Source of the DNA: a virus
Taxonomy: Duplodnaviria > Heunggongvirae > Uroviricota > Caudoviricetes
Virus record (IMG/VR): IMGVR_UViG_2703718769_000012
DNA: 7,207 nucleotides
Reading direction: 5' to 3' (one strand)
Below, one piece after another: positions 1 through 6,369 of this stretch. Position numbers and translations under genes: made by a program. The notes under the pieces are model-generated. The model searched no databases. It saw only the letters and a list, made by a program, of their open reading frames with translations, and was not told the origin of the DNA. Numbering within the stretch: position 1 is the first letter of the stretch; every line of letters starts with the position of its first letter.

Positions 1-177
1 ATGATCTGGCAGCCTGAGTTCACAGATAAAACACTCTCCAGGAAAATCGGGGCGGTTCAAAATCTTAATCAGGAAAAGTATGCTAACCATTGTGGTGAAG
101 TGCAGGTTTGCTGCATGAATAGTTTTACAGCAGAAGCTAACTGCTGGCATGGCAAAACAAAGTGCGTAAGTGGATGA
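1..177 (+). CDS. Short Cys/His-rich ORF (58 codons from window position 1, TGA at 175-177), possibly the 3' end of a gene truncated by the window edge
   Basis: Open frame from base 1: MIWQPEFTDK...HCGEVQVCC...CWHGKTKCVSG. It lies just upstream of the lysis cassette, where lambdoid phages carry the late regulator Q, but I do not recognise the sequence as Q. The ATG at position 1 may be coincidental. Confidence 0.35.
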   Translation: MIWQPEFTDKTLSRKIGAVQNLNQEKYANHCGEVQVCCMNSFTAEANCWHGKTKCVSG

Positions 178-284: not shown

Positions 285-455
285 TCAGGCTACAGCTTTA
301 AGATTTGTCTGGAATACTTTGTTGCAATGAGGGCAGATCAAAAGGGCACCTTTTTGTACTCTTGAAAAACTGTGTTCTGACTCTTGGGTGCAGTTTGGGC
401 AGGAACATTTAACGAGATAATTACGGCGTGATTTTGAGTTTTTACGTTCTGACAT
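285..455 (-). CDS. Small zinc-ribbon protein, 56 aa from the internal Met (the ORF track extends it to 506)
   Basis: Minus-strand ORF with a CxCxxC ... CxxC motif (KCSCPNCTQESEHSFSRVQKGALLICPHCNKVF). The internal ATG at 453-455 is preceded by AGGAAA with about 7 nt spacing; the ATG at 504-506 has no Shine-Dalgarno. A TTGAAA -35-like hexamer lies upstream on the minus strand. No homology search was done. Confidence 0.45.
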   Translation of the reverse strand: MSERKNSKSRRNYLVKCSCPNCTQESEHSFSRVQKGALLICPHCNKVFQTNLKAVA

Positions 456-674
456 AGGCTTTTCCTGTATAAATGGCCGTATACAGTACACTAAATATGA
501 AAACATTTCTCGTATTATTATTTTATATATGACTTTCTTTCAAAATAATTACCCACATTTTTAATGTGTATGTTTTTTTAGCGCCGTTGAGAACAACGTG
601 TGCTGTCAAAACTACCCCGTAGACTCCGATCTTTTCAAACATATTGCACCATCCGTGTACATCGGGGTGAGGAT

Positions 675-2815: not shown

Positions 2816-3004
2816 ATTACAAACCATATTCACTTTAGATGCCCGTGTTGTCATGGTTCCCAGTATAGAACATCATCTTTTGATGTTTCTGACATGAATC
2901 CTTTCGGGGCAAAATGTATCTTTTGTAAATCAATGATGATTACATTTGATAATATTTCACAATACTTAAATGCCAGCCGTCTGTCGTTGGATTTAAAAAA
3001 GTGA
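2816..3004 (+). CDS. Possible small zinc-ribbon protein with no canonical start codon (AUU start candidate, or frameshifted pseudogene)
   Basis: Frame open from 2795 to TGA 3002-3004, with CxxC-(21)-CxxC (RCPCCHGSQYRTSSFDVSDMNPFGAKCIFCKS). No in-frame ATG/GTG/TTG before the first Cys pair. GAGG (2804-2807, overlapping the cspI stop) sits 8 nt before an in-frame ATT at 2816, giving 62 aa. An ATG at 2839-2841 is out of frame by 1 nt across a CCC run. A terminator follows immediately. Confidence 0.3.
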   Translation: MTNHIHFRCPCCHGSQYRTSSFDVSDMNPFGAKCIFCKSMMITFDNISQYLNASRLSLDLKK

Positions 3005-3803: not shown

Positions 3804-4214
3804 TTAGCGTGGTAAGATCTGTGTAGTTTTCTGGATGCTTTCAGTAAATAGTAATGAATTATCAAAGGTATAGTAATATCTTTTTTGTTCGTGGATATTT
3901 GTAACCCACCGAAAAACTCCTGCTTTAGCAAGGTTTCTTCTGTATTCCTGAAATGTGATCTCTCTGGATTTCAGCTTATTAGAGGTCGTTTCTATAAGAT
4001 GCCTATCCTTTGAAAATTTGACAGACACAATGTTTTTTAGGCCCTTTAATAACACTGTATTATCATTTTTTAATACAATATGAACATTCTCTGTGGCTAA
4101 ATAGTAAATGTAATGTGAGACATTGTGACGTTTTAGCTCAGAATAAAACCATTGATAGTTTAAATCGTTTCGAACTTTATCAAATATTTGTTTAAAAATG
4201 ACTACCTGATCCAT
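3804..4214 (-). CDS. ydfO: DUF1398-family prophage protein (YdfO-like), function unknown
   Basis: 136 aa from the ATG at 4212-4214 ([23 protein letters not shown]...), which has GGAAGG 7 nt upstream. The ORF track start at 4229 adds 5 codons. Matches YdfO of Qin in length and, as I recall, sequence. Confidence 0.8.
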
Positions 4215-4439
4215 AGATAAACCTTCCATGTGATATGAGGGGGCGTAGTCTGCACGATTATCTAAATTGCTTCAATCTGGTCTGACCTGTTTTCTGAGCA
4301 ATTCAGTAATGTCACTCTTTTCTTTGTTTGCTTCAGAAGAAACTCTTTTTTCTGAGCACAGTCTCCGGCGGCAGGCTTCAATGACCCAGGCTGAGAAATT
4401 GATTATTTGACGTGGTTTGATGGCCTCCACGCACGTTGT

Positions 4440-4689
4440 GATATGTAGATGATAATCATTATCACTTTACGGGTCCTTTCCGGTGATCCGACAGGTTACG
4501 GGGCGGCGACCTCGCGGGTTTTCGCTATTTATGAAAATTTTCCGGTTTAAGGTGTTTCCGTTCTTCTTCGTCGTAACTTAATGTTTTTATTTAAAATACC
4601 CCCTGAAAAGAAAGGAAACGACAGGTGCTGAAAGCGGGCTTTTTGGCCTTTGTCGTTTCCTTTCTCTGTTTTTGTCCGTGGAATGAACA
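4440..4689. other. Lambda-type cohesive-end site cos (cosQ, cosN, cosB)
   Basis: Near-identical to my memory of the lambda genome ends. Right-end sequence ...GATGATAATCATTATCACTTTACGGGTCCTTTCCGGTGATCCGACAGGTTACG, then the 12-nt cohesive end GGGCGGCGACCT (4501-4512), then cosB with three CGTTTCC-core elements (about 4554-4561, 4614-4622 inverted, 4652-4660) corresponding to R3/R2/R1. Confidence 0.9.
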
Positions 4690-5235
4690 ATGGAAGTCAA
4701 CAAAAAGCAGCTGGCTGACATTTTCGGTGCGAGTATCCGTACCATTCAGAACTGGCAGGAACAGGGAATGCCCGTTCTGCGAGGCGGTGGCAAGGGTAAT
4801 GAGGTGCTTTATGATTCTGCCGCCGTCATAAAATGGTATGCCGAAAGGGATGCTGAAATTGAGAACGAAAAGCTGCGCCGGGAAGTTGAAGAACTGCGGC
4901 AGGCCAGCGAGACAGATCTCCAGCCAGGGACTATTGAGTACGAACGCCATCGACTTACGCGTGCGCAGGCCGACGCACAGGAGCTGAAAAATGCCAGAGA
5001 CTCCGCTGAAGTGGTGGAAACCGCATTCTGTACTTTCGTGCTGTCGCGGATCGCAGGTGAAATTGCCAGTATTCTCGACGGGATCCCCCTGTCGGTGCAG
5101 CGGCGTTTTCCGGAACTGGAAAACCGACATGTTGATTTCCTGAAACGGGATATCATCAAAGCCATGAACAAAGCAGCCGCGCTGGATGAACTGATAACGG
5201 GGCGCACTTTGACGGTGACCAGAGCGGCACGGTGA
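4690..5235 (+). CDS. nohA: Terminase small subunit, lambda Nu1 homologue with a replaced C-terminus
   Basis: 181 aa, MEVNKKQLADIFGASIRTIQNWQEQGMPVLRGGGKGNEVLYD... matches lambda Nu1 as I recall it through ...KAMNKAAALDELI. The last ~12 residues (TGRTLTVTRAAR) are read out of frame from J-derived DNA. Sits directly downstream of cosB. Confidence 0.9.
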   Translation: MEVNKKQLADIFGASIRTIQNWQEQGMPVLRGGGKGNEVLYDSAAVIKWYAERDAEIENEKLRREVEELRQASETDLQPGTIEYERHRLTRAQADAQELKNARDSAEVVETAFCTFVLSRIAGEIASILDGIPLSVQRRFPELENRHVDFLKRDIIKAMNKAAALDELITGRTLTVTRAAR

Positions 5236-5794: not shown

Positions 5795-6369
5795 TGGCAT
5801 TCAGAATGAGTGAACAACCACGGACCATAAAAATTTATAATCTGCTGGCCGGAACTAATGAATTTATTGGTGAAGGTGACGCATATATTCCGCCTCATAC
5901 AGGTCTGCCAGCAAACAGTACCGATATTGCACCGCCAGATATTCCGGCAGGCTTCGTGGCTGTTTTCAACAGTGATGAGGCATCGTGGCATCTCGTTGAA
6001 GATCATCGGGGTAAAACGGTTTATGACGTGGCATCAGGGGACGCGTTATTTATTTCTGAACTCGGTCCGTTACCGGAAAATGTTACCTGGTTATCGCCGG
6101 GAGGGGAATATCAGAAGTGGAACGGCACAGCCTGGGTGAAGGATACGGAAGCAGAAAAACTGTTCCGGATCCGGGAGGCGGAAGAAACAAAAAACAGCCT
6201 GATGCAGATAGCCAGTGAGCATATAGCGCCGCTTCAGGATGCTGTGGATCTGGAGATCGCAACGGAGGAAGAAACCTTGTTGCTGGAAGCCTGGAAAAAG
6301 TATCGGGTGTTGCTGAACCGTGTTGATACATCAACTGCACCGGATATTGAATGGCCAGCACTGCCGTAG
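5794..6369 (+). CDS. tfaQ: Tail fibre assembly protein (Tfa)
   Basis: 191 aa, [54 protein letters not shown]..., near-identical to lambda Tfa as I recall it. Coupled to the stf fragment by the TAATG overlap. Confidence 0.9.

Follow-up and report, generated by a model that had tools for sequence, protein, structure and literature searches.

Several described systems bear on small genes in the late region of lambdoid phages and on small zinc-binding proteins encoded beside cold-shock genes. The bor gene of phage lambda is expressed in the lysogen from its own promoter, occupies the other strand of the late region, and encodes a lipoprotein. Lin28 and the plant CSDPs join a cold-shock domain to CCHC zinc knuckles, and the DNL-type zinc finger (Tim15/Zim17/Hep1, PF05180) defines a eukaryotic organellar family. 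Generic Cys4 zinc ribbons are present in LysW, the N-terminal part of PhnA/YjdM, the C-ribbon of TFS/RpoM, eL42, L37Ae and the mini zinc proteins bound to archaeal ribosomes. The YmcF-like family (PF23641), which includes ynfQ after cspI and ymcF after cspG, consists of small, Cys-rich proteins encoded next to csp genes.

In the Qin prophage of Escherichia coli K-12, the gene order is ydfT(Q) - small ORF - cspF - cspB - ynfU - holin - ydfR - rrrQ - rzpQ - cspI - ynfQ - ynfR - ynfN - gnsB. The ynfU gene was found by ribosome profiling, with a reported initiation peak, and the protein carrying a chromosomal SPA tag was seen on immunoblots in both growth phases in LB at 37 °C, at the highest level among the new proteins of that study (Weaver et al. 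2019). The same authors remarked that YnfU has "a pair of zinc knuckles" and pointed out that it moderately matches PA0128, a PhnA-like protein (Weaver et al. 2019). A later genetic screen (PIRT-seq) also picked up ynfU. Of the other small Qin proteins, YnfR is reported to be induced by cold (PMC6001520). Past the discovery and the zinc-knuckle remark, no literature on YnfU function was found, and the gene is mentioned only incidentally.

The DNA analyzed here, referred to as the window, is a stretch of 7,207 nucleotides from a tailed virus (IMG/VR record IMGVR_UViG_2703718769_000012). A preliminary description made from its letters had pointed to a 56-aa minus-strand ORF with Cys pairs between an upstream gene and the holin gene, thought to resemble small prophage proteins such as YdaE or YnfU. 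The features discussed below are as follows, in window coordinates.

1-57, no strand assigned: end of an IS3-family insertion sequence, matched at 100% under "IS3 family transposase" features at 24,514 E. coli genome positions
203-228, T-run on the plus strand: G+C-rich hairpin and T-run from a terminator scan, between convergent cspB-side transcription and ynfU
285-455, minus strand: ynfU CDS, 56 aa and a TGA stop, for a protein of the YnfU family with a predicted zinc ribbon; same coordinates as RefSeq WP_211180497.1 in K-12
324-335, minus strand: second putative zinc knuckle (C41-P-H-C44), with C41, P42 and C44 conserved, placed by the model between its strands 3 and 4
390-407, minus strand: first putative zinc knuckle (C17, C19-P-N-C22), with C19, P20 and C22 in all family members and C17 lost in remote ones
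456-506, minus strand: in-frame upstream extension of 17 codons, outside the protein and holding the Shine-Dalgarno sequence AGGA (466-463)
483-488, minus strand: TACTGT, the K-12 form of the TAnnGT block (consensus GTGTATGGT), lying about 27 nt ahead of the ATG and a candidate -10 element
514-543, minus strand (read 543 to 514): alternative sigma-70-like site TTGAAA-18-AATAAT, 10/12 matches in a consensus scan

The longest ORF at this position occupies 285-506 on the minus strand and has 73 aa when counted from its first ATG, while the 56-aa reading starts at the ATG at 455-453 and stops at the TGA at 287-285. The N-terminal extensions added by some gene callers differ or are missing among homologues, and the start of the protein is therefore placed at the conserved MSERK (M18 of the long ORF). 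The resulting sequence, MSERKNSKSRRNYLVKCSCPNCTQESEHSFSRVQKGALLICPHCNKVFQTNLKAVA, is strongly basic (10 Lys/Arg against 3 Glu) and holds 5 Cys and 2 His in 56 residues, the Cys being arranged as C17-x-C19-P-x-C22 ... C41-P-x-C44. Positions 150-700 of the window match E. coli K-12 MG1655 with 100% identity, as they do more than 1,500 further genomes of E. coli. This stretch is found in 1,653 of 5,426 complete genomes, a distribution as expected for a prophage-borne accessory gene. The same CDS is labeled in the K-12 RefSeq record as ynfU (b4776), "putative zinc-binding protein YnfU", in the Qin prophage. Profile HMM searches returned Pfam PF23499 (YnfU; E 3.5e-31, 107.3 bits against a cut-off of 27, residues 1-49 on a 49-position profile) and NCBIfam NF038384 (E 1.1e-22, 79.4 bits against a cut-off of 36). 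The ORF is thus a full-length member of the family and is ynfU itself, where the preliminary description had guessed at a YnfU-like protein. As the gene is annotated, its family is covered by curated models and the protein has been detected, the observation is a rediscovery of a known gene, which as such opens no new question.

The YnfU family is small and well constrained. A word-indexed search of 5.8 billion proteins gave 49 relatives, nearly all labeled as YnfU family and as Enterobacteriaceae. Its small size is also apparent from a profile search run exhaustively over 1.84 billion cluster representatives, in which only 42 matches were obtained. None of these 42 showed an informative domain fusion; long matches that might have been taken for fusions were rejected as start-codon over-extensions, read-throughs or repetitive CPxC proteins. 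Eighty loci, one per species, were fetched with 6 kb on each side, and their ynfU genes had a median dN/dS of 0.10 against the K-12 copy (Nei-Gojobori), with dS often saturated. The gene is under strong purifying selection. Taken with its RefSeq annotation and its scores against Pfam and NCBIfam, this constraint across 80 species bears out the first claim made for the ORF, that it is real. In an alignment of 27 sequences, K5, L14, P20, C22, S26, E27, H28, S29, F30, K35, P42 and C44 are invariant, with at least 90% of the sequences keeping C19 and C41. More remote members, of 53-63 aa and 30-42% identity, retain the two CPxC knuckles and an S-x-H-S segment and have I, V, S or T in place of C17.

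The left part of the window needs a different reading from the one first given. The gene thought to flank ynfU upstream corresponds to an ORF at 1-177. Its bases 1-57 are the end of the IS3-family element, K-12 differs over this segment (intergenic DNA and then cspB there), and no ORF equivalent to 1-177 exists in K-12. For these reasons the "upstream gene" is not a gene; it is a chimera of the IS3-family end and intergenic DNA, made by the IS junction and the edge of the window. In the strain from which the window comes, this insertion sequence end lies about 230 bp past the 3' end of ynfU. The antiterminator gene Q falls outside the window; its K-12 position is about 1.2 kb further upstream, past cspB and cspF.

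The preliminary description had also tentatively grouped YnfU with the Cys-rich ORF after cspI as divergent members of one small family, partly on account of an S-F dipeptide between the Cys pairs of both. The two peptides do have roughly the same C-x-C...C-x-x-C layout and a similar size, both adjoin csp genes, and their families are neighbors in 15 of the 80 loci, all of which could fit two diverged paralogues of one zinc-ribbon family. The ORF after cspI is RefSeq ynfQ (2816-3004, plus strand, ATT start, 62 aa), however, and its product gives a full-length match to the YmcF-like Pfam family PF23641. BLASTP gave no alignment between YnfU and YnfQ at E<=100. A comparison by hhalign of the YnfU profile with a YmcF-like profile, built from a 21-sequence alignment of YnfQ homologues taken from the fetched loci, returned 4% probability over 7 columns, with knuckle 2 of YnfU paired to knuckle 1 of the other family. 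Each protein matches its own Pfam family only: PF23641 is absent among YnfU matches at E<=0.1, and YnfQ matches nothing but PF23641 at E<=10. The conserved motifs differ as well (SEHSF...RVQKG in YnfU, HGSQYRTSxFDVS...NPFGAKC in YmcF-like proteins), and the S-F dipeptide belongs to SEHSF in one and to RTSxFDVS in the other, so that it is no sign of kinship. Many YmcF-like members moreover have a conserved non-ATG (ATT) start. An absence of similarity past the Cys pairs had been named in advance as the outcome that would speak against kinship, and this is what the pairwise comparison gave. Common descent of the two families as paralogues is hardly credible on these results. Kinship with YdaE of the Rac prophage of K-12 fared no better, as BLASTP gave no alignment with YnfU at E<=100. 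What the YmcF-like family shares with YnfU is small size, richness in Cys and csp adjacency, with the YmcF-like gene often next to ynfU in other genera, and no homology between them is detectable.

The fold class of YnfU is clear at the level of prediction. The two CPxC knuckles lie about 18 residues apart with the conserved S-E-H-S-F segment between them, the arrangement that characterizes the family. An AlphaFold2 model based on the wider alignment has a mean pLDDT of 75 (68 for an earlier model), with disordered termini, and shows a strand at 14-18, a strand at 25-29, a helix at 30-34, a strand at 38-40 and a strand at 47-49. Each knuckle is placed at the turn of a beta-hairpin and the four Cys are brought together, as in zinc ribbons. 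C17 is replaced in remote members, which makes C19, C22, C41 and C44 the likely ligands of one structural zinc and the "CxCxxC" pattern a local feature. The sub-threshold Pfam matches of the family are spread over about 140 zinc-finger families, and this scatter across many zinc-ribbon families supports the fold class. The PhnA/YjdM zinc ribbon PF08274 reaches 22.4 bits, below its gathering threshold of 30.8. A Foldseek search of the PDB gave a best E of 0.7, the top matches being small zinc proteins bound to archaeal ribosomes, and a profile search of PDB sequences gave marginal matches, at E about 0.01, to Tim15 (DNL zinc finger) and eL42 that became no better after remote members had been added. 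The generic Cys4 ribbons listed above thus have the same predicted topology, two knuckles between beta-hairpins, but all scores against them are sub-threshold, only YnfU has the SEHSF segment and the basic tail, and no function can be transferred. No functional family is assignable to YnfU from fold or sequence matches.

The resemblance to Tim15 is the main support for another reading, in which YnfU, like many small proteins of bacteria, would bind and modulate one larger protein, a chaperone or an enzyme, through a ribbon that serves as a protein-protein interface, as in Tim15/Hep1 with Hsp70, or in LysW. The best PDB match of the family profile includes Tim15 (E 0.01-0.016) and extends across both knuckles and the S-x-H-S segment, the spacing in DNL-type fingers is similar (C-x2-C, S-x-H-x-x-S, K-G-x-x-L-I-x-C-P-x-C), and 5 of 22 family members give a sub-threshold zf-DNL match, with a best E of 0.013. 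It is also expected that most small proteins bind larger ones (Weaver et al. 2019). Every such match, however, stays under the family thresholds (zf-DNL 13.5 bits against 27). DNL-type fingers have H-L-I-x-D-N-L after the second knuckle, whereas YnfU has no D-N-L motif after the second CxxC; the K-12 protein reads ...CNKVFQTNL there, with only F48 conserved across the family in an otherwise unconserved segment. The strong basic charge and the csp neighborhood favor nucleic acid as the partner. The resemblances to Tim15 and LysW are marginal, compatible with a protein modulator without establishing one, and we consider this role somewhat unlikely, though the strongest of the competing ideas.

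A role in metal handling, with YnfU buffering, storing or sensing zinc or iron in place of binding nucleic acid, might be read from the 5 Cys and 2 His in 56 residues and from the nearly invariant H28. HypA, a metallochaperone, is among the sub-threshold matches, and one preprint has ynfU up together with the suf genes. Against this, zinc ribbons with one Cys4 site typically use it for structure, and the fifth Cys, C17, is not conserved in remote members. Furthermore, metal-homeostasis genes do not recur among the neighbors, and no Zur or Fur box is evident by eye in the conserved upstream block. Metal handling therefore appears very unlikely as the function of YnfU.

The claim that ynfU has its own translation signals holds: AGGA ends 7 nt before the ATG, its GGA is conserved across 72 leaders, and translation has been reported (Weaver et al. 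2019). About 60 nt upstream of the ATG are conserved across unrelated genomic contexts, with a mean top-base frequency of 0.68, compared with 0.44 over the 75 nt past the stop, and the leader consensus reads ..GCTAT..N12..cGTGTATGGT..N6..CC.ATT.A.tCAGGA..CCTATG. Conservation of this kind across unrelated contexts supports ynfU as a transcription unit of its own. Within it, the TAnnGT block has column frequencies of at least 90% in 72 distinct leaders from different contexts and looks like a -10 element, from which a leader of about 20 nt would follow; no convincing -35 element or known operator was recognized beside the block. The sigma-70-like site upstream is confined to Escherichia, and such sites occur 2.3 +/- 1.4 times in shuffles of the same 900 nt, so that this match, not above expectation, is weak evidence by itself. 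The block and this site are two candidate promoter elements of ynfU.

Downstream of ynfU, the hairpin at 203-228 likely ends plus-strand transcripts. It may also end the ynfU transcript, for which the T-run on the minus strand is poor. Terminator-like hairpins in the window are barely commoner than in shuffled sequence. G+C-rich hairpins follow ynfU in most genera, with comparable ones in other genera at about 60-110 nt, and at loci with a csp gene convergent on ynfU the hairpin is placed between the two genes; in the window this hairpin occupies 203-222. The idea of an RNA thermosensor in the leader found no support: RNAalifold gave no consensus structure, and single-sequence z-scores ranged from -1.1 to +0.9. 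Rfam returned no known RNA family on either strand of positions 1-900. A 7-bp hairpin spotted by eye in the K-12 leader was not conserved and was set aside.

With regard to its position in phages, the placement of ynfU in the cargo region between Q and S is confirmed, since K-12 Qin and the phages PhiR42_1 and HannyBb all have the order Q - cspF - cspB - ynfU - holin. Its antisense orientation to the lysis genes is confirmed too, as it occupies the minus strand of the window, opposite to the late operon. Eight isolated phages carry a YnfU homologue. In PHB10 it lies beside a csp pair near the integrase, and one Klebsiella phage has ynfU alone, without a nearby csp gene, directly upstream of the holin gene and antisense to it. 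A tRNA array considered for the region of tiny ORFs in HannyBb was rejected, as this region has no tRNAs and holds unannotated cspB and cspF. Like the bor-type morons of lambda, ynfU lies in a lambdoid late region on the strand opposite to the late genes, where it would form an independent unit, and its product is likewise made without induction. In terms of moron signals, the promoter-like and hairpin sites are not significantly commoner than in shuffles, the upstream block is conserved, and the protein is present in uninduced K-12 (Weaver et al. 2019). In contrast to bor-type products, YnfU is cytoplasmic, basic and a putative zinc binder and is not a lipoprotein, and its family is mostly chromosomal.

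Its place immediately upstream of and antisense to the holin gene in K-12, PhiR42_1, HannyBb and the csp-less Klebsiella phage, together with promoter-like sites of its own, could suggest that ynfU is cargo serving the prophage or lysogen (exclusion, defense or lysis timing), or that its antisense transcription damps read-through into the holin gene. Most homologues, however, are chromosomal and non-phage, without a holin gene within 6 kb, and the protein is under a strong purifying selection that an RNA-only role would not require. The absence of conserved leader structure and of Rfam matches in 1-900 is likewise unfavorable to an RNA-only role. Searches of NCBIfam gave no defense-related family and those of PHROGs only marginal matches to families of unknown function. 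With most family members outside phages and the protein sequence strongly constrained, a primary function centered on the phage, antisense interference included, is unlikely, and we give this reading little credence; in Qin-type phages, such a role may exist as a side effect.

The wider distribution places ynfU in a different setting. Neighbors of the 80 loci were located by tblastn and by HMMs built on the window's own genes, and a gene with a cold-shock domain (CSD) was found within 500 bp of ynfU in 57 of 80. Counted over all loci, 92 CSD genes are at most 1.2 kb away from ynfU, compared with 7 in the remaining flanks (about 0.93 Mb of flanks). Sixteen distinct local arrangements were seen; the commonest, with ynfU, a convergent cspB-like and a divergent cspF-like gene, accounts for 19 loci, and 4 more have it with a YmcF-like gene on the other side. 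The 15 loci with a YmcF-like neighbor mentioned above have it within 1.2 kb of ynfU. Qin-type lysis genes are present at only about 12 of 80 loci (Escherichia, Shigella, some Citrobacter, Superficieibacter and Yokenella). Elsewhere the setting is chromosomal, as read from gene calls with Pfam labels. In Kluyvera, ynfU lies between thrS-infC-rpmI-rplT-pheST and yniD/pfkB, in the order YmcF-like, YnfU, CSD, CSD; in Raoultella it adjoins the acetoin (bud) operon; in Klebsiella it lies between amino-acid and PTS genes; in Kosakonia it is beside a convergent CSD gene; and in one Enterobacter lineage no csp gene accompanies it. Most homologues are thus chromosomal and ynfU is not phage-specific. Its linkage to csp genes is frequent and not obligatory, given that 18 of 80 loci (for example, Enterobacter L086-L088) lack both csp and YmcF-like genes in the vicinity. 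One island inherited by common descent, without selection for co-function, may account for part of this linkage. The description of the locus as cargo between Q and S is right for E. coli; what is carried there is a cold-shock island of host type, with ynfU as one of its genes.

Altogether, we modestly favor the view that ynfU is a free-standing unit of the csp island carried by Qin-type phages and encodes a basic protein with a predicted zinc ribbon, for which a role as an accessory protein that binds RNA or the ribosome is a more tentative suggestion. The unit would consist of its own promoter region, a Shine-Dalgarno sequence, a 56-codon ORF and a downstream hairpin. Its product is predicted to begin with a disordered tail rich in Lys and Arg and to continue as a Cys4 ribbon, in which two CPxC knuckles enclose the invariant SEHSF strand-helix segment. 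The gene would be no phage invention and would belong to a conserved enterobacterial island made of a cspB-like/cspF-like pair, often with a YmcF-like gene, which E. coli lambdoid phages of the Qin type carry between Q and holin. There, transcription of ynfU would start at a promoter of its own and run against the late operon, and YnfU is made in ordinary growth. The functional part of this proposal is tentative and less likely than not: charge, fold class and neighborhood, and these only, hint that the basic tail and zinc ribbon may bind RNA or the ribosome and that YnfU may work in the same RNA-handling physiology as the neighboring Csp RNA chaperones. A strictly cold-specific role is argued against, since LB cultures at 37 °C contain abundant YnfU in both growth phases, so that it is not a cold-only protein.

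A bolder version of this proposal would make YnfU a dedicated partner of CspB/CspF-type proteins, providing in trans what zinc knuckles provide in cis in Lin28 and plant CSDPs, and would make the csp/ynfU/ymcF island an ancient enterobacterial RNA-chaperone module captured and spread by lambdoid phages. As in these proteins, a CSD and a small zinc module occur together at ynfU loci, there as adjacent genes and not as one polypeptide. The knuckles of Lin28 and the plant CSDPs, however, are of the CCHC retroviral type and fused in cis, whereas the pairing of YnfU with Csp proteins is seen here as gene adjacency alone. Such a partnership, suggested by analogy, is improbable.

For the biology of this locus, three points are corrected: there is no kinship between the two Cys-rich ORFs, the "upstream gene" arises artificially from an IS junction, and ynfU is not phage-specific. 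Beyond these, the linkage to the csp island is a modest new lead that goes past existing annotation, as the adjacency of ynfU to CSD genes, and frequently to a YmcF-like gene as well, is tight and has been repeatedly rearranged and yet retained in at least 14 genera. It gives a well-expressed and uncharacterized small protein of E. coli a testable idea, namely that YnfU may bind RNA or the ribosome within Csp physiology. Qin-type phages, in turn, hold a host-derived stress island in the slot that other lambdoid phages use for toxins.

The DNA upstream of ynfU, the 56-aa zinc-ribbon gene of the window (285-455, minus strand), carries a GTGTA(T/C)(G/T)GT block whose conservation between genera exceeds 90%, in the window and in loci L005-L084, which carry ynfU homologues.

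Features in the window
Within 456-530, minus strand: GTGTA(T/C)(G/T)GT block, some 27 nt before the start codon of ynfU; same region in L005-L084
2447-2832, plus strand: cspA thermoregulator match (Rfam), 112.8 bits versus a gathering score of 78, spanning the cspI leader and coding region
2816-3004, plus strand: YmcF-like gene after cspI, start codon ATT
6137-6335, plus strand: IS009 match (Rfam), 221.5 bits, within the tail-fibre assembly gene tfaQ

The block may serve as a -10 element or may bind a regulator. A conserved G at hexamer position 5 is unusual, and no convincing -35 element accompanies the block, either in window 456-530 or in L005-L084. Window 1-57, the terminal part of an IS3-family element, matches 24,514 places in E. 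coli genomes, and the DNA of K-12 MG1655 differs over this stretch; an IS therefore lies between cspB and ynfU in the source strain of the window. The 58-aa ORF at window 1-177 is an artefact of the IS junction. In several E. coli strains (cS76a, F3_13_1_3 and EH01-18-04-A among them), IS1 or IS200C is inserted within the ynfU-holin stretch, which, together with the IS3 end of the window, suggests that insertion sequences often target the AT-rich DNA around ynfU.

Four contigs with ynfU (L007, L029, L039 and L041) are filed as Veillonella parvula (MAG), Vagococcus, Kocuria and a Bacillota MAG. The DNA of L007 is that of E. coli Qin (protein identity 98-100%), and all four appear to be contaminant or mis-binned contigs, not genuine occurrences outside Enterobacteriaceae. 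Among phages, ynfU itself was left unannotated in Tritos and 2H10. Between Q and ynfU, the deposited annotation of phage HannyBb (PP925841) shows about 20 ORFs, each 30-55 aa long. Missing from it are cspB and cspF, both found by tblastn at 100% identity; the region (L095 3700-6900) holds no tRNA genes.

Features in other loci
L095 (HannyBb) 4038-4250 and 4551-4760: cspB and cspF (tblastn)
L090/L091 (Kluyvera) 5403-7600: compact chromosomal island, lying between thrS-pheST and yniD; also in L038, L051, L076 and L078

The YmcF-like gene after cspI begins with ATT, and 20 YmcF-like homologues of other genera have Ile or Met as first codon at the same position; this recurrence suggests a conserved non-canonical start. 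RefSeq gives its product as 'cold-shock protein', yet the protein lacks a cold-shock domain, and its RefSeq label, ynfQ, was given by VanOrsdel et al. (2018) to another ORF, of 37 aa.

The chromosomal island contains a 75-aa gene of no known kind, a YmcF-like gene, ynfU and two genes for cold-shock domain proteins. In Qin-type phages, the module is split in two, with cspF-cspB-ynfU and cspI-ynfQ flanking the lysis cassette on either side, and the thrS-pheST/yniD island may be near the ancestral form of this module.
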